Assembly (NCBI GenBank): GCA_008690995.1
Contig: VRMN01000003.1
Span: 1,860,001 to 1,924,000, forward strand
DNA from: Porphyridium purpureum
Lineage: Eukaryota
Direction of reading: 5' to 3'
DNA length: 64,000 nt
Shown here piece after piece: positions 1 through 53,595 of the stretch (the stretch's first letter is position 1; each line of letters starts with the position of its first letter). Under the pieces are notes generated by a model. The model was not told where the DNA came from and ran no database searches. It worked only from the letters and a program-made list of their open reading frames with translations. The translations under genes and the position numbers were made by a program.

Positions 1-363
1 CACAACCGCGCACGGCACTGTGACGTGCCCCTTTTTGTCCAAGCGGCAGACACCGGATTGAGGCGACGCGCAACGTCTGTGCGCACCACGTGCAAGATGT
101 CTCCCACCGCGCATCACGCGCACAACACACAGCGCACGTGCGGACTTGCACACCGCGCATGCCATCTTACCCAAGACCATTCCTTCGTCATGAGTCTGTG
201 TGAGTGTATGTGAGTTTCCTCTCTCTTGCCTTCGTCGCAATCTCGCATTTCAGTCCTCCCCTTCTCCCGCGCGAGTTTCTACGATCGGCGGCTTACACGC
301 GCACTGTACCTTATCACGAAAGTCAGTCGCACGCATGATTCGCGGGTGTACAGTGCGCGATCG

Positions 364-369
364 ATTCTC
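364..369. repeat. Left target-site duplication ATTCTC (right copy 6305-6310; could be 8 bp CGATTCTC, 362-369 / 6303-6310)
   Basis: The same hexamer immediately flanks both outer LTR ends. Confidence 0.85.
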
Positions 370-666
370 TTTGATGATAGCGTCTTCGTGAAGCACGCGT
401 ATACCAAACGTGTACCAATAGTAAACTACTGGTGTCTAGCTGAAGCAAGAGGTCCACAACAAGACGACTTTACTCCTTAACACAACCTAGCTCTTACCTC
501 AAAAGGAGACAGAGCGCCGACTCGTCGGCCGTCTCTCACACTCTAATGATATACTACTGTGGTTAACCATTACGGTCACCAACCAACGGAGAGTTGTCAT
601 CATTAAGTATTTGATGACTCCACATCACGTCATCAGGCAGGCAGAGAGGGATGACTATATTCCACG
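370..666 (-). repeat. 3' LTR (297 bp; internal TG..CA core 372-664)
   Basis: Matches 6008-6304 at a constant offset of 5638 with no mismatch found by eye. Lies downstream of the ORF and abuts the PPT. Confidence 0.95.
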
Positions 667-678
667 CACCCCCTCATC
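667..678 (-). promoter_or_regulatory. Polypurine tract
   Basis: Minus strand GATGAGGGGGTG immediately precedes the 3' LTR; this is the typical copia-like GAGGGGG tract. Confidence 0.8.
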
Positions 679-706
679 ACTTCTGCGCTGGCTGCAAAGG
701 AACGAA

Positions 707-3700
707 TCACACTCGCTCGACAAGGTGCCAGCGGGTGTACGGATCATTGTCACGCGACATTTTCTCATCATCATGGCTGTACGCATAGCCGCGCATGCCA
801 GCGTCATCGTCGCAGTCGTCGGGCTGCATGAGCATCGCGAAGGCGTTGCCACGGTTTGCGGCGGAGCGAGCATGCGTCATACGCTGGGCGATGCCAAGGG
901 ATAAGCTTGCACCGTACAGGCCCCACGCGGCTGCATGGCCGCGAAACACGTCGGTGGCAATCGGCTTCGTCAAGCCGTCAGCGACGTTGTCGCGCGTAGC
1001 GACATAGACGAACCTGACGAGTCCGTCCGCTGCTATCTCGTGCAACCATCTCAGAGAGATGCGTTGCATCTTTGGCGCATGCAGTAGCCGGTCACTGTGG
1101 CCGCGCTCCACCGCGCGCAAAGTCGACTCGTTGTCGCACCGCACAACGATCGGAGGCCAGCGCCTCAAAAGTTCTTCCGCCAGTGTCGCCACTGGGAACA
1201 CGCTGCCTTGCGCTGCGTCGTGCAGCGCTACCAACTCAGCCTCGGTCGTCGAGGTGCTGACGCGCCGCTGGCGCCGACTGGTCCAGTCTACAAGGTGTCG
1301 GCATCTGCCATTCGATATGAAGAGCACGGCGCCGCTCGTGGATGACGGTGCCGAAAAGTCGGCATCAGCCCATGCGTGCAACCGAACGTCGCGACTGCCT
1401 GTCGCGGGTATGTCGTATTGCAGACAGACGTCCGCATGCTTCTTCAGATACCCGACGATCTCGTCGAGCGCGCGATCCGCGCTTGGCCCCCACCGGTCGA
1501 CATAACGCGCCACATGCGCCGTGGCATAAGCGATGTCTGCTCGCGTGGTTCGGCTGAGCCACAGCAGTTGGCCAATCACAGTTCGCTTGTTTGTCGGGCA
1601 CGCGCGCCCGCCGGGACCATTGTCGTCGACCCGCTCGCTGAGTGGCGTGCTGCGCACGCGCAAGTTGTCCGCGGTGTGGCCGTTCGCCACATGGGTGGCG
1701 TACACCCCCGAATCCAATACCCATCGGCCGCCGTTGCGATAGATGTGCATGCCGAGATACTTGATAGGGCGCGTACGCGCCGAGTCTGCAATGTATTCGA
1801 CCTTCTGGTCGATTCTGAAAACGGTCTTCAGTTGTTTGACCGCCACTCGTACCGCATCCGTATTGCCGAAGAGTGCGCCATCGTCTACGTACATGCTCAG
1901 CGTGAGCATGCTGCCGTTTGCGCCGCGGCGCCAGTACTGGTTCTTGTCCGCGTTGGATTCTTGCCATCCAAGCCGCCGGGCACGCTCGCGAGCGTCGTGG
2001 CTGAAGTCATTGCCGCTCCGTTTCATTCCGTACAGAGCCTGCGGTAGCTCGACGACAGGCTCGCTACACGCGGCCATCTTCCTGTAGTCAGCTTCGCTGA
2101 CTAGACCCTTCACGACCGGGACCAGGTCGCGCAGATATCCGAATGTCGGACGGCCGCCCAATGGTGCACTGGGGTAGGCACACGTTACATCGAAAAAGGC
2201 GCCGTCGGCGGATGGTCCATGGAGCATGAGCGCCATGCTCATCGAGGCACGGATCGCCAGCAAACCTGGTGGGCGATCAAAAGGGTACGGTTCTTCGCGC
2301 GCGCGACGCCCATCGGCGTCCAGCACGACGCATCCTTGCGCGACGATGCGGCACTTCGTCTTGTGGAACGACGAAGGCATTTCTGAATTCTTCTTGTTGA
2401 AGAGGAGCTTCAACTTAACGAATTGCGCGTTCGGAACGCGCGCCGCCACTGCCTTGTCCATCGTGCGGCGGAAAGGCAGAGCGCCGGTGCTGCTGAGCGC
2501 ACGAAGCTCGGATGCTAATGCATGGCGGCCGGCGGGCGTGGCCATCGCCACCGCTGTGGCCACAACTTCTGCCACCCCCAGACCTGCCGCTTCGTCCTCT
2601 GGTCCCCCTGTCGCCGCGCTTGTATACGTTGCGTCGCTGCTACTCTCTGCTCGCGTCGCGTCGTTCCGCGTCGCGTCGCTCGCTGCTGCTGCGTGCACTG
2701 GAAGCACACCCAGTTCCGCTGCGCGCGCGCGCAAGCCGGCTGGTTTGCGGCCGCGCATGAAGAATGCTGGCCTACCCGCGATGGCAAGCCAGTCCTCACC
2801 AAAACGGGCAATGCCTTCGGATATGGCAATGTCCTCGGCCGGACTCCACGGCAGCTCAATGCGCCGATACTGTGCTCGCGACGCGAGCTTTCCGTGCTCG
2901 TCTCGGTCGCACTGGCAGTGCATTTGCCTGCATGTGCCGTCACCAGTGTGACGTCGGCTGGGCGCCGGACCCAAAATGCATTTCTCGCATTCGGTGCTCC
3001 CACCGACTATTTTCTTGCACTGTGTGTAGAATGCACGGTCCGGTGCATTGTCGCGTGCTCGCGACCATTGATCACCCGTCGCAATGGCCTCATCCGGAGG
3101 CCGCAGTGCCAAACGTCGCAATGGCCACTTGTCGGGAAGTGGCTTCCATTCGCCGACCTTCCTGATCGCAGATGGCCGCAAGTCGGCAATAGGCAGGGCG
3201 AGCAGGTTTATGGGCTGCCGCGGGTCATTCGGCCTCGGTGCCGTGAACCCAACGACGATTGCAGGCAAGCCTTTCGGCTCAAATTTGCCGCGGCTCTCAT
3301 CGTATATGAGAATGCCGCTCCCGAATCCAGGGATGGGCTTGTGCCATGTCAGACCGAGCCGTTGCTCGAAGCTGGTCTGCTCCTGCTTTGCGCCGCGCCA
3401 GGCAAGGTTTCTGGCCAGGCAAAAGTAGGCGGCGGCGAACGGATACCACGCGGTCGGCAAACCAGACTGCATCAGCAGTGCTCGCACTGCTCCGTTCAAG
3501 TCTGCGTGCTTGCGTTCATGCGTCGCGTGCGTGTTCGCCCGGTACGGTACACCAGTGACTTTCTTCACGCCCTTTTCCGCGATGAATCCGTCGAATTCGC
3601 CCATGAACTCGCGGCCCTCGTCACACCGCAACACTCGTGGCCAATCACCACGTCCGCGCTGCAGCTCCGTCAACCCGCGAATGCACTCAGCGGCGGACTT

Positions 3701-5761
3701 GTCCGCCAGCCCAATTGCTGAGAACCACCCAGTGGCTTCGTCGAGGTGAGTGAGCAGCCACCTGCTGCCCTCCACGGCTGCCAGTCCGGGATCCACAATG
3801 TCAATCGACACCACGTCGTTGAACTCGCGCGCTCGTCCGCGCTCTTTGCCAACCGAGTCGTCTCGCCTCACAGCACGCGCGCGCCGCAGCTTTGCCGCGC
3901 TGCATATTCCGCACGTGTCGCGCGACGGCATGTGCAGAACGCAATGGTCCTGCTCTACATGCTCAGCCTCGGCTGTGCCAAGACTGTGACCGCCGATGGT
4001 CATTTCGAAGCGGTTGGTTCGAAGCCAATCGAGACCGATCACGAGGTCATTGTGGCCATTGTACACGACCACGTCCTGCTGCTTCTCTGCTGAATCCAGC
4101 ACCGCCAGATTCACTGTCGCGCGCCCGCGAGACATGCACTGCGTGCCGTCTGCCAATCGAATGGTCAAGGCATTCGCGGTGCTATTTGTGCGCACTCGCA
4201 CCATCGCGCATGCGCTCTCGCTCAGAAAGGTGTGCGTTGCGCCGGTATCGATGACTGCTTTCATCGCCCGGCCGTTCACCCAAGCATTCACCTTGAGCAA
4301 CCCTTTGCCCGCACTGGCGGTCATCAACTCGGCTCCGCCGAGATTGGCATCGCGATCATCGCGCCTATCTGCACAGTTGTGCGTCGCTGGCCCCCACACG
4401 GAGCACCGATGGCAGTAATAGCGCCCACGCTGATTACTCTTCTTGCCATCTTGTTGCGACTTCGGCGTCTGTCGCGGTCGTGGTCTACTGGCACCGCCTC
4501 GTTGCGGTGCGCCACGCTTCTGTCCGCGCCCACGCGCGTCGTTCTGGCCGCCACCACGGTTCCAACCGTGCGTGCTCGGCTCTCGCCAGCCGCCGTCTCG
4601 TCCGTCCGCGCGGCTCTGCGCGTACTGCTCTGCATGATTCGCACGCAGGTTCCGGTGCGGTCCAGCTGGTGACCATTGGTCATGCTGTTGCTGTTGATAC
4701 TCGTTCGAGCGATCCCGCTGGAAGTCGTTGTATCCTCGTTCGTGCACCCGTGCGCGGCTGCCGCTGGCGGTGCCCAAGTCCATTGGCACCGGACCATGCT
4801 GGTTATAGTTCATCTGGGGGTGGTATGCAGGCTGCATGGCTGACGGGTACGTGCGTGCTGTGATGGGCTGCTGGTCTCGACCACGCTTAAATATGACTTT
4901 GTCGGCAACTAAAGCCAAACGCAAAGCGTCGTCATAGGTGGGAGGGAAGTGAAGCGCTACGTGAGTGGCAATAGAAGTGTCAAGAGATTCTGTAAAATAG
5001 TGAAGTTTATCTTTGTCTACCAAATTTGGTATACGCAGACAAACTTCACTAAATGCAGCTTCAAAATCTTGGACACTCATTGCACCCTGCTTCATCTTTT
5101 GCAGTTCATCCCGCACGTCATTTTCTGTTTCTTTTGGCTCGAAGCGCCGCTGAAGCGCGAGCAGAAACTCTTCTACCGAGGTGGGTCTCTGATCAGGTTG
5201 TAATGCCTGGTACCAGAGTTGCGCCAATCCGAAGAGGTGAGTCGAAAGCGTCGACACTGCTTCCTCTTCCTCGGTTTCCGTCCAAAGACGGCCCTGCGAC
5301 CGCCAATCCGAGCGCGCCGGGTTGTACACCCGCGAACGCGCTGCTGCCGTCCAGGTCATAATGGCCGCAGTGGATCGCTCGCCGCCATAGTACAGCATGG
5401 CCGCAGGGCGCATGCAGCTCGGCAAAGCGCCACTTCCACCGGATCCATCGCGAAGCGCCCTCAGACGAACGTTCTCGCTCCGCAGCTCGGCGAGCTCACT
5501 CTGAACAATCGCCGTCCGGGTATTCAGTTCGGTCGCCATCTTGGCGCCGAATTCCTCCGAGAGTTGGCGATGCATTTGGGCGTATGCCGCATTCAGCATC
5601 GCCGCCATCTCTCGTTTCGTTTCCTCGCGCGCGGACTCGCGCCGCGCACTTGCTGCCGCGCCAAGGCGGGTTGCCGAGGCGTTTGCACCACCGCGTGCCG
5701 GCGACGGTGTTGCTGGGGTACTAGCACCCGCAGCCCTATCCATGTCATATTCCATGACCAA
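707..5761 (-). CDS. Gag-Pol polyprotein (Gag, aspartic protease, integrase, Cys/His cluster + Myb-like domain, reverse transcriptase, RNase H), 1684 aa
   Basis: Gag: LFGLAQLW..QGAMSVQDF..PVPMDLG. PR: VIDTGATHTF..VIGLDWL. INT: HCVLH..CGIC, SID, RCDEGREF, HERKH. RT: KCRIVAQG, FDVTCAY, QALYGMKRSG, MYVDD. RH: WADADF, STTEAE, CDNES, NVADGLTK. The frame is uninterrupted. Confidence 0.96.
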   Translation of the reverse strand: MVMEYDMDRAAGASTPATPSPARGGANASATRLGAAASARRESAREETKREMAAMLNAAYAQMHRQLSEEFGAKMATELNTRTAIVQSELAELRSENVRLRALRDGSGGSGALPSCMRPAAMLYYGGERSTAAIMTWTAAARSRVYNPARSDWRSQGRLWTETEEEEAVSTLSTHLFGLAQLWYQALQPDQRPTSVEEFLLALQRRFEPKETENDVRDELQKMKQGAMSVQDFEAAFSEVCLRIPNLVDKDKLHYFTESLDTSIATHVALHFPPTYDDALRLALVADKVIFKRGRDQQPITARTYPSAMQPAYHPQMNYNQHGPVPMDLGTASGSRARVHERGYNDFQRDRSNEYQQQQHDQWSPAGPHRNLRANHAEQYAQSRADGRDGGWREPSTHGWNRGGGQNDARGRGQKRGAPQRGGASRPRPRQTPKSQQDGKKSNQRGRYYCHRCSVWGPATHNCADRRDDRDANLGGAELMTASAGKGLLKVNAWVNGRAMKAVIDTGATHTFLSESACAMVRVRTNSTANALTIRLADGTQCMSRGRATVNLAVLDSAEKQQDVVVYNGHNDLVIGLDWLRTNRFEMTIGGHSLGTAEAEHVEQDHCVLHMPSRDTCGICSAAKLRRARAVRRDDSVGKERGRAREFNDVVSIDIVDPGLAAVEGSRWLLTHLDEATGWFSAIGLADKSAAECIRGLTELQRGRGDWPRVLRCDEGREFMGEFDGFIAEKGVKKVTGVPYRANTHATHERKHADLNGAVRALLMQSGLPTAWYPFAAAYFCLARNLAWRGAKQEQTSFEQRLGLTWHKPIPGFGSGILIYDESRGKFEPKGLPAIVVGFTAPRPNDPRQPINLLALPIADLRPSAIRKVGEWKPLPDKWPLRRLALRPPDEAIATGDQWSRARDNAPDRAFYTQCKKIVGGSTECEKCILGPAPSRRHTGDGTCRQMHCQCDRDEHGKLASRAQYRRIELPWSPAEDIAISEGIARFGEDWLAIAGRPAFFMRGRKPAGLRARAAELGVLPVHAAAASDATRNDATRAESSSDATYTSAATGGPEDEAAGLGVAEVVATAVAMATPAGRHALASELRALSSTGALPFRRTMDKAVAARVPNAQFVKLKLLFNKKNSEMPSSFHKTKCRIVAQGCVVLDADGRRAREEPYPFDRPPGLLAIRASMSMALMLHGPSADGAFFDVTCAYPSAPLGGRPTFGYLRDLVPVVKGLVSEADYRKMAACSEPVVELPQALYGMKRSGNDFSHDARERARRLGWQESNADKNQYWRRGANGSMLTLSMYVDDGALFGNTDAVRVAVKQLKTVFRIDQKVEYIADSARTRPIKYLGMHIYRNGGRWVLDSGVYATHVANGHTADNLRVRSTPLSERVDDNGPGGRACPTNKRTVIGQLLWLSRTTRADIAYATAHVARYVDRWGPSADRALDEIVGYLKKHADVCLQYDIPATGSRDVRLHAWADADFSAPSSTSGAVLFISNGRCRHLVDWTSRRQRRVSTSTTEAELVALHDAAQGSVFPVATLAEELLRRWPPIVVRCDNESTLRAVERGHSDRLLHAPKMQRISLRWLHEIAADGLVRFVYVATRDNVADGLTKPIATDVFRGHAAAWGLYGASLSLGIAQRMTHARSAANRGNAFAMLMQPDDCDDDAGMRGYAYSHDDEKMSRDNDPYTRWHLVERV

Positions 5762-5991
5762 ACACTGGGCGCGTCGCGCTCACCAGTTGCGCTTCGAGCG
5801 CCTCTTTTTTTTCCTTCTCGATGTTCGCGGCGCCGATCAGCGTCTTGGCTGTCGCGCTGCCACAGTCGCTTTTCCAAAGCGTGATCGAGGGTAGAGTTGG
5901 GGAATGACCGAATGATAGAAACGCAACCACAATAGGTGGTTAGTCAAGCAAGCAAGAAGAAGAAAGATGAGGGAAACACCACAGCGCAAAG

Positions 5992-6007
5992 GCTGGGCTC
6001 ATAACCC
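5992..6007 (-). promoter_or_regulatory. Primer-binding site complementary to the anticodon arm of initiator tRNA-Met (half-tRNA priming)
   Basis: Minus strand reads GGGTTATGAGCCCAGC. Plus strand GCTGGGCTCATAACCC resembles the tRNA-iMet anticodon stem-loop (CAT anticodon). Same PBS type as Drosophila copia (GGTTATGGGCCCAG) and Ty5. Confidence 0.85.
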
Positions 6008-6304
6008 TTTGATGATAGCGTCTTCGTGAAGCACGCGTATACCAAACGTGTACCAATAGTAAACTACTGGTGTCTAGCTGAAGCAAGAGGTCCACAACAA
6101 GACGACTTTACTCCTTAACACAACCTAGCTCTTACCTCAAAAGGAGACAGAGCGCCGACTCGTCGGCCGTCTCTCACACTCTAATGATATACTACTGTGG
6201 TTAACCATTACGGTCACCAACCAACGGAGAGTTGTCATCATTAAGTATTTGATGACTCCACATCACGTCATCAGGCAGGCAGAGAGGGATGACTATATTC
6301 CACG
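6008..6304 (-). repeat. 5' LTR (297 bp; internal TG..CA core 6010-6302)
   Basis: Copy of 370-666. Followed directly in element orientation by the PBS. Confidence 0.95.
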
Positions 6305-6421
6305 ATTCTCCTGTTGCGCGTGGAGCGCGGGGGGTGGGGCTCGGCTATGTTGGATTCAAGGATCACATGGAAATGTGTGTATGGATGGATGGAAGACACA
6401 ATGAGGTGCGAGAATGGCCAG

Positions 6422-7372: not shown

Positions 7373-8791
7373 ATGGAAGCGAATGAGGTCACAGTGGGCG
7401 CCGCCATTGAGCTTGCTGGACTTGGGCGCTTTCAGTACATGCTGGCGATGAAGTGCATCTTTATCTGGATGGCAGACGCGATGGAAATGATGTTGCTAAG
7501 CTTTCTAATCTGGGAGCTGCAGCCGCGACAACACAACGCGTCGTTGCTCGGTTCGGTCACGTTCGTGGGCATTTTTGTCGGGAGCATCGCGTACGGAATG
7601 GTCTCTGATCGTGTGGGTCGTCGAGTCTGCACGCTACTGGTGCTCCTAAACTTAGCTGCGTTTGGGTGCGCATCTGCGCTTGCGCCCAGCTTCGCGTTGC
7701 TCGTGCTGCTGCGAAGCTTGGTCGGTGTCGGTGTAGGCGGTGTGCCCGTGTCATTCGCGCTTTTTTGCGAGTTCATGCCCGCGCAGCATCGAGGCAAGAT
7801 GCTTGTTCTTGTAGAAAGAGGCGCGTGGGCGCTAGGTGCCATAGCAGAATCTCTGCTGGCGTGGCTCGTGCTCCCAAGGCTCGGCTGGCGCGCCTTTCTG
7901 GCTCTCTCTGCCGTGCCGTCATTTCTCGCGTGCTGTTTGTATCCGTGGCTCCCAGACTCCCCGCACTTTCTCATCTGCGCGGGCCGTCTCGATGAAGCCG
8001 CCATTCAAATTGCCGAGGTTGCACGGGTCAATGGCAATTTACTTCCACCCGACTTTAAGCTCGCGGGAGTGGCGCCGAACGATGCACGCGGCAATATTAT
8101 GCGCCTTTTTTCAAGGTCGATGTGGGCTGAAACGCTCCTGATCTGGTTGCTCTGGCTCACGAATGTGGCGCTGTATTATGGCATTGTACTAATTTCGCCT
8201 GGCTTCCTCGAAAGCCGGCACGAAAACATATTTCTAGGAACCATGGTGAGCGCAGTGGCAGAACTTCCGGGCCTGGTCGCGTGCATGGTCATGATTGACC
8301 GAATCGGGCGTCGTGCGACGTGTGCGCTCCTGATGGCATTCGCGTGTGGTTCGCTGGGTCTACTTTGTGCGAATCTCCAAGCAATGCCGAGACCCGTTGC
8401 CAGCGCTGCGCAACTCGTGGCGCGAGCCAGTCTCGCTGGGACGTTCAACGCGCTTTACGTGAGCACTGCCGAATTCTACCCAACCTCTATCCGAAGCACC
8501 GGCGTCGGCGCGGCATCCGCGGCATCCCGCATTGGCGGCTTTGTCACTCCATGGATAGCCAGTCTCGGGACATCTGGGATTGACGCCGACGCTCGTTCGT
8601 TCCGTCTGCCTCTGGCCATTTACACGGCCATGGCGCTGGTCTCCACAGTGCTCGCCATGCTGCTTCCGTTTGAGACCAACGGTGTCATCATGTCAGACGA
8701 ACGTCCAGCTCTCAAACACGAGCGCATTCCGAATGGCGCTCGAAGATCCGATTCACAGGACCGCACAGCCGATGCCGTGCTTTGTCACTAG
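7373..8791 (+). CDS. MFS transporter, SVOP/SV2-related organic cation-like family
   Basis: GLGRFQ, WMADAMEMMLLSF, SDRVGRR, EFMPAQHRG, PDSP, IDRIGRR, AEFYPTSIRSTGVG; about 12 hydrophobic segments. Start placed at the first ATG. Confidence 0.9.
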   Translation: MEANEVTVGAAIELAGLGRFQYMLAMKCIFIWMADAMEMMLLSFLIWELQPRQHNASLLGSVTFVGIFVGSIAYGMVSDRVGRRVCTLLVLLNLAAFGCASALAPSFALLVLLRSLVGVGVGGVPVSFALFCEFMPAQHRGKMLVLVERGAWALGAIAESLLAWLVLPRLGWRAFLALSAVPSFLACCLYPWLPDSPHFLICAGRLDEAAIQIAEVARVNGNLLPPDFKLAGVAPNDARGNIMRLFSRSMWAETLLIWLLWLTNVALYYGIVLISPGFLESRHENIFLGTMVSAVAELPGLVACMVMIDRIGRRATCALLMAFACGSLGLLCANLQAMPRPVASAAQLVARASLAGTFNALYVSTAEFYPTSIRSTGVGAASAASRIGGFVTPWIASLGTSGIDADARSFRLPLAIYTAMALVSTVLAMLLPFETNGVIMSDERPALKHERIPNGARRSDSQDRTADAVLCH

Positions 8792-32744: not shown

Positions 32745-34181
32745 TCACCGACCATGCACGCGCAGCTCACGCAAAAGCATATTACAGGCGTACAAAAAGG
32801 AAAACATGTTGCCGAGGCGGTGGATGATGTCCAGTCGGAATCCGCTTGTGGTCTTGTAAAGTTGGAGAGTAAATCGGCACTGAAGGAGCTCGCCATCCTT
32901 GCTGACCTGCTGCGTCTCGTCGAACACAATGACCTTGATCTGGAAAGGCTGGTGCGATGGGCTCTTCCACCGCCAACGCAGCGCGCTCAAAGCACGGTAC
33001 ACTTCCATCATGACGTCCGCTGCCCGCGGAAGGCGGCTGTGCACGCCAATAATCCAGGAACGCGCGTTGAGCGGGGATCCGTCCGCCGAGCCGTTCAGCC
33101 CTGTGTCTCGAGGCGCCTGCCTTTTGCTCTCTCGCTGCATGCTCGTCGGTTTGCCCATTCCGGCCGCGTTCTCCACAAATGAGCGATCAAGTGTCAGTTT
33201 GCTATCCTTGAGCAAAAAGTAAGCCGCGGTGTATACATTCTTCCGATTCTGGATCAATGAACGATAAATGGTCGCCTGCGGGTAACCCATTTTTTGCTCA
33301 ACCATGGCCAAAATGTTCTGATCAATAGGCTCGCGATCGTATCCCACCTTTGGCGGCACAGCCAAGTATCGTGGCAGTCGCGCTTGGAACCAGCTGTGCC
33401 GGCGGATTTCCTCGATGGATATTCTGCGCATTGGGTCCGTTACCAGCATCTTGCCGATCAAATCGCGCGATAGCTCGCTCAGGAACGATGGAAGAACGTA
33501 GATTCCACCCTTGATCTTCTTGAATAAATACGGAATATTTTCGTCGTCAAACGGCAGGGTGCCGCACAACAGCGCGAACAAAATCACACCGCATGACCAC
33601 ACGTCGACTTCAGGTCCGGCATACAATTTGCCGGAGATAACCTCGGGCGCGGCGTAGTTGGGCGACCCGCAGCTCGTCTTGAGGAAAAAGCCGTCCTGCA
33701 TCAGATTCGAAAGTCCAAAATCCGCAATCTTCACGTTGTTGTTGGCATCCAGCAGCAGATTTTCTGGCTTCAAGTCGCGGTGCGCGACCATATGCTTGTG
33801 ACAATATTCGATGCCCGACACGATTTGCTGGAAGAACATGCGCGCCTCGTCCTCCGATAACCTGCCGCGCTCGACGATATAGTCGAACAGCTCGCCGCCG
33901 GGCGAGTACTCAGTCACTACATAGATGTCATTGGGCGCATCAATCACCTCGTAGAGCTGGATGATATGTGGGTGCGTGAATAGCTTCAGGATCTTGATCT
34001 CGCGCTTCACCTTGTCTTCCATGTCGAGCATTTTGATTTTCTGCCGATTCAAAATCTTCACCGCCACCTTGCGACCGGTTGCCTCGTGCTCGGCAAGCTT
34101 CACTTTACCAAAGGAGCCCACGCCCAACGTTCGCCCGAGGCGGTAATTGCCCACCTTCATAGTGCTGTGTGTGAGCGACAT
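32745..34181 (-). CDS. SNF1: SNF1/AMPK-alpha/SnRK1 catalytic subunit
   Basis: LGVGSFGKVK, HRDLKPEN, DFGLSN, LKTSCGSPNYAAPEVISGKLYAGPEVDVWS; UBA-like and KA1-like C-terminus. Confidence 0.97.
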   Translation of the reverse strand: MSLTHSTMKVGNYRLGRTLGVGSFGKVKLAEHEATGRKVAVKILNRQKIKMLDMEDKVKREIKILKLFTHPHIIQLYEVIDAPNDIYVVTEYSPGGELFDYIVERGRLSEDEARMFFQQIVSGIEYCHKHMVAHRDLKPENLLLDANNNVKIADFGLSNLMQDGFFLKTSCGSPNYAAPEVISGKLYAGPEVDVWSCGVILFALLCGTLPFDDENIPYLFKKIKGGIYVLPSFLSELSRDLIGKMLVTDPMRRISIEEIRRHSWFQARLPRYLAVPPKVGYDREPIDQNILAMVEQKMGYPQATIYRSLIQNRKNVYTAAYFLLKDSKLTLDRSFVENAAGMGKPTSMQRESKRQAPRDTGLNGSADGSPLNARSWIIGVHSRLPRAADVMMEVYRALSALRWRWKSPSHQPFQIKVIVFDETQQVSKDGELLQCRFTLQLYKTTSGFRLDIIHRLGNMFSFLYACNMLLRELRVHGR

Positions 34182-52281: not shown

Positions 52282-53595
52282 TTACACCAGCCACGGAGTA
52301 CGAATGTTTGCGCCAGCGTACACGGCCTTATCGCCCAACTGTTCCTCAATTCGAAGCAGTTGGTTGTACTTTGCCAGACGCTCCGACCTGCAAGGCGCAC
52401 CCGTCTTGATGCTGCCTGTGCCAAGACCCACCACAAGATCTGCAATGAAGCTGTCCTCGGTTTCGCCAGAACGGTGGCTCACCATGACGCCCCACTTGTT
52501 CTCACGGCACATGTTGTGGGCCTCGATAGCCTCGCTGATCGAGCCGATCTGGTTCACCTTCAGCAGCAGAGCCGTACATGCCTTCTTCTCGAAAGCCATC
52601 TTGATGCGATCCGGGTTCGTGACCAGCAGATCGTCACCGACAATCTGGCAGTCGGTTGCGGCGGTCATCTTGGCATACCCAGTCCAGTCGTCCTGGTCGA
52701 ATGGATCCTCTATCGAAATGACCGGATAATTTTCAATGAAGCCCTTGTACATATCGATCATCTCGTCTTCGGTCTTGTAGAACGATCCATCCGAGTTGGG
52801 GTTCTTGAAGTCGAGATCGTACTTCTGCTTATCCTCTTTCCAGAACTCAGATGCGGCGACGTCCATGCCGATCGAGATCTTGCCCTCGTACCCTGCGATC
52901 TTGATGGCGTCCATGAGCAGCTTGAGGCCCTCCTCGTTATCCTGAATGTTCGGCGCAAAGCCTCCCTCGTCACCGACTCCAGTCGCATCGATGCCGTACT
53001 TCTTCTTGATCACCGACTTGAGGTGCTGGTACACTTCGGCGCCCATCTTCATGCCCTCCTTGAACGAGGTGGCACCAGTGGGCATGATCATGAACTCCTG
53101 CATGGCGAGCTTGTTTCCGGCGTGCGAGCCGCCGTTGATCACGTTGAAGCTGGGCGTTGGCAGGATCATTTTATGCCCGCCCGCAAGTTCGTTGATGTGC
53201 ACGTACAGCGGCACCTTCTTGGCCGCGGCGCCAGCACGGCACACAGCCATGGACACGCCAAGAATGGCGTTTGCTCCCAGGCGCTTCTTGAAGCCTCCCG
53301 GGGTGCCGTCCAGCTCGATCATCTTGGCGTCGACCGCCTTTTGATCGGCGGGATCCATGCCCGTGATGGCCGGGCCGATCTCGTTAATCACGTTTGCGAC
53401 CGCCTTGCTGACGCCCTTCCCAAGGTACGCCGACTTGTCTCCATCCCGCAGCTCGAGCGCCTCGTAGATCCCCGTGGACGCACCGGACGGCACCATGGCG
53501 GAGAACACGCCCAGCTCGGTCGTCACCTCGACCTCCACGGTCGGATTCCCACGCGAGTCAAACACCTCGCGCGCATGCACGCCTGTAATCCCCAT
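52282..53595 (-). CDS. ENO: Enolase (cytosolic)
   Basis: [77 protein letters not shown]. Confidence 0.99.

Follow-up and report, generated by a model that had tools for sequence, protein, structure and literature searches.

A Porphyridium purpureum LTR retrotransposon with Ty3/gypsy-type Gag and protease joined to Ty1/copia-type integrase, reverse transcriptase and RNase H

A 64,000-nucleotide stretch of Porphyridium purpureum DNA (contig VRMN01000003.1, positions 1,860,001 to 1,924,000; hereafter the window) carries on its reverse strand, at window positions 369-6304, a complete long terminal repeat (LTR) retrotransposon that is intact and was inserted recently. Its single open reading frame (ORF) of 1682 amino acids (aa) lies between identical LTRs and reads, in order, Gag, protease (PR), integrase (INT), reverse transcriptase (RT) and RNase H (RH); the first two domains are of Ty3/gypsy type and the last three of Ty1/copia type. 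Copia and gypsy elements are classed in separate virus families, and each domain is expected to follow that split. We consider it probable (roughly 0.8) that this arrangement goes back to an old exchange, in which a member of a divergent copia lineage lost its Gag-protease block and received that of a gypsy element instead. An earlier reading made from the letters alone (the sequence-only reading) had placed a chimeric element at 4000-5420, a range that covers the Gag core to the protease and falls short of the whole element; its description of one open frame with gypsy-type Gag and protease, copia-type RT and RNase H, and INT ahead of RT, was borne out by the domain map, profiles and trees described below.

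The gypsy character of the front end was recognised by Pfam above curated cut-offs within the first 590 aa, with PF03732 (E 3.6e-12), PF19259 Ty3_capsid (E 1.2e-10) and PF13975 (E 1.2e-10), and the Gag motifs, PVPMDLG and the protease stretch from VNG..MKAVIDTGAT..FLS to DLVIGLDWL that had first suggested it are all present in the ORF. The same scan of the ORF gave no match at E<=1 to RVT_1, UBN2 (PF14223) or Pol_BBD (PF22936), and none to a chromodomain. The closest database protein to the whole ORF is a Porphyridium purpureum record at 99% identity. A single-sequence Gag-PR search returned two matches only, and a profile search was used instead; it recovered 12 proteins, two of them family members. 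All ten others contained RVT_1, none contained RVT_2 and three had a chromodomain, and Gag-PR identity to named gypsy proteins was 19-29%. Against the PDB, the Gag-PR profile matched Ty3 Gag best (E 2e-6), with the Copia virus-like particle matched at the zinc knuckle only (E 0.15).

These ten gypsy proteins were cross-scored at 15 bits with 65 copia proteins drawn from the RT-RH search described below; each set was picked by the domains being tested, and the zeros are thus the informative part. The Gag profile reached the threshold in 0 of 65 copia and 5 of 10 gypsy proteins, and the protease profile in 0 of 65 and 7 of 10. When the Gags of six family members were scored against profiles of both types, they gave 45-72 bits with the gypsy Gag profile and no more than 1.6 with the copia one. 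The Gag regions of five lineage relatives with a copia-type protease scored at most 2 on the gypsy profile. A UBN2-like copia Gag is accordingly lacking from the ORF, and the protease has the ILG motif in place of the LLS motif of Ty1/copia. The LLS and ILG motifs mark copia and non-copia proteases, respectively, ILG being the commonest form among the latter (PMC2774666, in excerpt). In Additional file 3 of that paper, ILG occurs in 0 of 69 Ty1/Copia elements (62 have LLS and 7 have lost the motif), and among the 71 rows with integrase after protease the two with ILG are Gmr1 gypsy elements. The predicted model contains a capsid fold and a retropepsin fold, confident in the ordered parts (predicted template modelling score 0.29). 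Fold searches with the capsid returned the C-terminal domain of PEG10 (Z 13.0, root-mean-square deviation 1.9, 84 aligned) and the Drosophila Copia capsid (Z 12.1, deviation 10.2, 159 aligned); a copia protease structure was absent from the listed matches for the protease.

Downstream of the protease, the signal is that of copia. Pfam matched rve at aa 646-739 (E 4e-8), and the RT-RH search recovered 71 proteins, comprising six close relatives and 65 others at 22-33% identity; every one of the 65 contained RVT_2, and none contained PF03732, PF19259 or PF13975. All 30 RT matches fell in the RVT_2 set (score 0.97). In the cross-scoring, 20 of the 65 copia proteins and none of the ten gypsy proteins reached 15 bits with RT; for the integrase core the counts were 23 of 65 and 5 of 10, with best integrase scores of 61.9 bits for copia vs 43.7 for gypsy. 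The element therefore has the PR-INT-RT-RH order and the integrase, RT and RNase H types of Ty1/copia, and of the gypsy features it has the Gag, by sequence, and the ILG protease, but not an RVT_1 RT or the RT-RH-INT order. The spacer of the integrase finger is 6-7 aa in all eight chimeras and in all 15 short-finger relatives (the latter partly picked for this feature). It measures 24-32 aa in each of the 18 canonical copia proteins and 21-29 aa in seven of eight gypsy proteins, so that a short finger was found in none of the canonical copia and none of the seven scorable gypsy proteins.

Trees of the separate domains conflict, as the sequence-only reading had expected of a chimera. In the protease tree, nine chimera and eight gypsy proteases were separated from 25 copia proteases with support of 99/93; neither here nor in the Gag scores above did these domains group with a copia lineage, and such a grouping had been named as fatal to the chimera reading. 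In the integrase tree, the chimeras fell on the copia side (100/96), within the short-finger lineage (91/81). In the RT-RH tree, also inside the copia lineage, the clade of the element was joined first by P0241, P0249 and P0250 of Porphyridium purpureum (95/94) and next by three relatives with an LLS protease (87/88), and a larger quick tree agrees broadly. The protease of P0241 groups with canonical copia (99/100), whereas its RT-RH adjoins that of the element, and the conflict is thus independent of rooting. Its integrase also groups with canonical copia, which implies that front ends were swapped more than once on this RT-RH lineage. P0241, P0249 and P0250, which have a UBN2 Gag and a Pol_BBD protease, constitute a second kind of mosaic, in which the RT-RNase H of this lineage is combined with a canonical copia Gag and protease and an integrase of canonical type.

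The same architecture, sought elsewhere, proved to be shared. P0003, P0004 and P0007, which have 44-54% RT identity to the protein of the element (P0001), have the same build. A profile search of 1.84 billion representatives added, among the best 150 of 44,649 matches, further chimeras from Porphyridium (P0113, P0140 and the distant P0104/P0237 family) and two metagenomic ones (P0116 from ENA and P0183 from JGI), in all of which an ILG protease immediately precedes an integrase of this kind. No fewer than five divergent Porphyridium families thus have the join, as do two metagenomic proteins, and the chimera is therefore old. Within the same best 150 matches, the wider lineage consists of copia elements with a very short integrase finger, including one from Prorocentrum cordatum (P0135), and most members readable as far as the protease have an LLS-like copia protease. 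The family Gags have in common a helix extension and a PM(D/E)LG motif, both absent from six gypsy Gags. A search for related loci in metagenome, prokaryote genome and viral contigs gave no confirmed locus. In the sister family P0236/P0104/P0237 (Porphyridium purpureum), Gag is additionally on record as a short ORF by itself, which includes a zinc knuckle. This knuckle is missing from the full-length model P0237, which may thus be a gene-model join; in P0104 a single ORF contains the protease-integrase junction. Porphyridium purpureum has undergone a recent LTR expansion, with 545 Copia-labelled and 364 Gypsy-labelled repeats (PMC6811547, in excerpt).

The sequence-only reading had allowed either a recombinant or a deep lineage. 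The data favour the former, as an old and lineage-wide event rather than one made at this locus, and disfavour the latter. In its strongest form, the deep-lineage alternative holds that an early-branching copia lineage kept an ancestral copia/gypsy Gag and ILG protease, UBN2 Gag and LLS protease being later inventions; we regard this as unlikely, although it is the best of the alternatives. It would account for the low Gag-PR identity to named gypsy proteins, for the prevalence of ILG outside copia and for capsid folds common to both superfamilies, as found by the fold search and reported in PMC11835246 (in excerpt), and a position of the chimeras basal to all other copia was not rejected by the approximately unbiased (AU) test on the full set of 39 rows (p 0.357). 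In the best trees, however, the chimeras lie inside elements with copia proteases: in the concatenated pol tree with a gypsy outgroup they nest among these with Shimodaira-Hasegawa-like approximate likelihood ratio support of 96 and 97 (95 and 93 on the reduced set). The basal position was rejected, only marginally, on 30 rows (p 0.049), after removal of P0096 (a mosaic), P0125 (a long branch) and seven rows for thinning (P0102, P0108, P0080, P0083, P0088, P0193 and P0210). Moreover, canonical copia would need to regain a gypsy-like long integrase finger, and the nearest RT-RH relatives have ordinary copia Gag, protease and integrase, which favours an old swap over a relict lineage.

Several results weigh against an old swap. 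Besides the two AU tests, the protease data, tested separately, failed to reject the pol topology (p 0.248), and the capsid fold did not separate copia from gypsy, PEG10 and Copia being tied. The RVT_2 match at aa 1231-1363 (E 4.7e-5) lies under its curated cut-off (23.5 vs 31.6 bits), and the gypsy comparison set numbers only ten proteins, selected by likeness to this Gag-PR. The finger was also shortened separately in P0241 and P0250, Porphyridium proteins with canonical-type integrases, and is thus not a clean marker. No donor gypsy lineage was identified, and the contigs bridging the junction, described below, are short-read contigs, which can collapse repeats.

That an ordinary copia Gag-protease drifted by convergence into likeness to gypsy profiles is improbable: both domains evolve rapidly and profiles cover them poorly (PMC6317226, in excerpt), and the protease AU result would permit it, but two adjacent domains switch jointly over their full length, the Gag of the element has no similarity to the copia Gag of its RT sister P0241 (best E 1.0), and the copia proteins gave no score at threshold on either profile. 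An assembly artefact, or a recent nested insertion with a deletion at one locus, is less probable still, since, although short-read contigs can collapse repeats and listed contig pieces in runs X1 and X4 break near 3970-4020, the LTRs are identical, have a target duplication and enclose one open frame, the junction lies within single contigs, and the same join occurs in families 44-54% identical in RT and in ENA and JGI proteins.

Contigs from 8 of 24 listed sequencing runs were compared with the window. The junction was bridged in four of the eight, from four studies, by contigs covering 2799-6036 (run X2), 3494-4107 (X12), 3200-5500 (X10) and 3908-4056 (X8), contrary to the misassembly that had been named as a possible objection. 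In run X2, a high-depth contig represents the empty site (window 361-6303), skipping 5941 bases, which equal the element plus one 5-bp duplication. The flank is joined to the LTR in runs X1 and X12, and the insertion is thus polymorphic; identical LTRs and an empty allele indicate that it is recent. Taken together, the bridging contigs and the empty site indicate that the junction is real and the element recently mobile. A joint in run X4 that goes back 5638 was considered as a circle and set aside, since it fits a collapsed LTR. X15 and X22 are sparse RNA runs; the 29 of 10.9 million reads in X22, mostly in sense orientation, were not taken as evidence of expression.

The LTR ends, CG...AG, were set by a 298-nt contig (run X1, exactly 369-666) and several other flanks, with TG at 2 nt and CA at 3 nt inward from them. 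LTR termini are usually TG...CA (PMC3601003, PMC12440569, both in excerpt), and the CG...AG ends suggest that the integrase joins the DNA termini as they are, with no trimming to CA. The 5-bp duplication is within the 4-6 bp general for LTR retrotransposons. Several other contig flanks match one base past each LTR end, a hint, from few contigs, of an A-N-N-N-T target preference. The primer site, GGTTATGAGCCCAG, lies immediately after the 5' LTR, and we take it to match half of the initiator methionine tRNA. Half-tRNA primers are confined to Ty1/copia in a plant-element survey (PMC6317226, in excerpt). The 64-kb window contains no tRNA gene and no further element copy or solo LTR.

In the proposed cycle, LTR-driven RNA would be translated into one polyprotein, the gypsy capsid would form particles and package the RNA, and the gypsy protease would cleave both its own Gag and the enzymes of copia type. 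The half tRNA and the polypurine tract would serve the copia RT as primers, the copia integrase would insert the DNA with a 5-bp duplication, and the element may be active at present. Ahead of gag lies a primer site that is presumably copia-type, which makes two crossovers likely for the swap, the first between this site and gag and the second between protease and integrase. Such an internal swap would keep each copia enzyme paired with its own priming or integration signals, and the joint transfer of Gag and protease would suit a protease that has to cleave the Gag it came with. The swap probably took place by template switching between co-packaged RNAs, the gypsy block entering a copia element rather than the reverse. 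As to number, a single origin fits the concatenated data better (log-likelihood +9.7, p 0.70) and agrees with the shared Gag features, whereas the careful RT-RH tree needs two changes, so that either one or two swaps may have occurred.

At least three different front ends occur on this RT-RNase H: a gypsy Gag-protease with a short-finger integrase, the canonical copia front end of P0241, P0249 and P0250, and the lineage's own with an LLS protease in metagenomic relatives. We lean towards viewing this as a plug-and-play lineage, in which one copia-type RT-RNase H takes at least three front ends, capsid and protease are exchangeable across the copia/gypsy divide with mobility retained, and CG...AG ends reflect joining without trimming.

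Table 1. Coordinates of the features of the element within the window, in order along the element.
Feature	Position	Strand	Basis
Target-site duplication, 5' copy	6305..6309	-	AGAAT on element strand; X2 empty-site contig skips 5941 = 5936 + 5
5' LTR, 298 bp, ends CG...AG	6007..6304	-	Repeat sequence; contig flanks joining at these ends
Primer-binding site, half-tRNA-iMet type	5993..6006	-	Abuts 5' LTR; sequence; tRNA identity presumed
Single Gag-Pol ORF, 1682 aa (P0001)	707..5755	-	Open frame 5755 to 707
Ty3/gypsy-type Gag capsid domain, aa 115-290	4886..5413	-	Pfam, PDB sequence matches, profile scores
RNA stem-loop, about 125 nt, in capsid coding region (predicted)	4960..5090	-	Folding: z -7.96 (site picked after inspection)
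Degenerate nucleocapsid zinc knuckle, Cx2Cx7HxC	4373..4414	-	Sequence
Ty3/gypsy-type (ILG) aspartic protease, aa 484-590	3986..4306	-	Pfam, PDB, fold search, motif, tree
Inferred gypsy/copia junction, protease end / integrase zinc finger	3950..3990	-	Bridged by contigs, runs X2, X12, X8, X10
Copia-type integrase, short HHCC finger H-x3-H-x-P-x4-C-x2-C	3206..3964	-	Pfam, profiles, tree
Integrase C-terminal extension: Cys/His cluster and Myb/SANT-like stretch (2777-2851)	2531..3205	-	Pfam E 0.017, below cut-off
Copia-type reverse transcriptase, YVDD at 1880-1891	1376..2518	-	Pfam, profiles, trees
Copia-type RNase H	881..1363	-	Profile: >=15 bits in 65/65 copia, 0/10 gypsy proteins
Polypurine tract	667..683	-	Abuts 3' LTR; sequence
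3' LTR	369..666	-	100% identical to 5' LTR
Target-site duplication, 3' copy	364..368	-	Sequence

Some further features of the element and window were noted (Table 1). The zinc knuckle is degenerate in the element and in P0003, and a canonical CCHC occupies the same place in P0004 and P0007. The Myb/SANT-like stretch of the integrase tail recurs in P0083 (E 3.3e-5), P0093 and P0250, and the Cys/His cluster is also present in relatives; the tail might, like chromodomains, guide target choice. The stem-loop in the capsid region was the strongest of 90 windows across the element (z -5.3) and is possibly a packaging or dimerisation signal. G+C content at third codon positions is 0.72 in protease, integrase and RT, with the capsid region alone low at 0.53, and by this measure there is no base-composition seam at the protease-integrase junction. 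The remaining window, 7373-63851, looks by its ORF translations like ordinary compact algal genes, which from their motifs presumably include a transporter-like gene (7373-8791), a kinase (32745-34181) and an enolase (52282-53595).

A mobile lineage of several families in which a gypsy shell and protease serve copia enzymes indicates that parts can work together across the divide, and, if the swap is true, that the main copia and gypsy classes are able to trade parts. It also provides a natural test, set in a small algal genome, of the features that capsid and protease need to recognise, namely an RNA packaging signal and cleavage sites. In repeat libraries, such elements can be divided or wrongly described if they are labelled by RT only or Gag only. 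The literature searched, with most subscription papers and Repbase outside its scope, contained no account of this build; the nearest printed precedent, known by title, is reportedly a copia element from Porphyra whose integrase is gypsy-like. The excerpts of PMC5890265 and PMC5776459 hold nothing on this build. A large plant survey discarded elements with chimeric signs as likely mispredictions (PMC6317226, in excerpt), and such lineages can thus be filtered out by design.

Among known systems, the element resembles Ty1/copia (Pseudoviridae) in its INT before RT, its copia-type INT, RT and RNase H, its presumed half-tRNA-type primer site, its single ORF and its 5-bp duplication, and is closest there to the divergent short-finger lineage that includes P0135 of Prorocentrum cordatum and many metagenomic proteins; it differs in having ILG instead of LLS, PF03732/PF19259 instead of UBN2, and LTR ends of CG...AG. 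With Ty3/gypsy (Metaviridae), including the chromoviruses, it has in common the core of Gag and the ILG protease, and a chromodomain is present in 3 of the 10 outside matches of Gag-PR. None of the 10 gypsy proteins, however, matches its RT or RNase H, its INT precedes RT and groups with copia, and no chromodomain was matched in it. In Gmr1-like elements, too, integrase comes immediately after an ILG protease (Additional file 3 of PMC2774666); those elements are gypsy throughout, their domains being rearranged, and contain a GPY/F motif, whereas INT, RT and RH are copia-type in the element described here. PyRE10G of Porphyra yezoensis, which is GalEa-related, is another red-algal copia element reported to have a gypsy-like part (PMC3587641, in excerpt), although there the integrase is called gypsy-like, whereas in the present element the integrase is copia-type and Gag-protease gypsy-type. 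The GalEa primer site TGGTAGCAGAGC and protease motif DTGC (PMC3587641, PMC5445492, both in excerpt) are absent from the element, which has DTGA. Troyka LTRs also start with CG instead of TG (PMC12440569, in excerpt), but Troyka has CG...CG ends, 3-bp duplications and gypsy order, in contrast to the CG...AG ends, 5 bp and copia order of the present element. The element is a clean member of none of Ty1/copia, Ty3/gypsy, Gmr1, Troyka or GalEa; it is copia-like in replication and integration and gypsy-like in packaging and processing.

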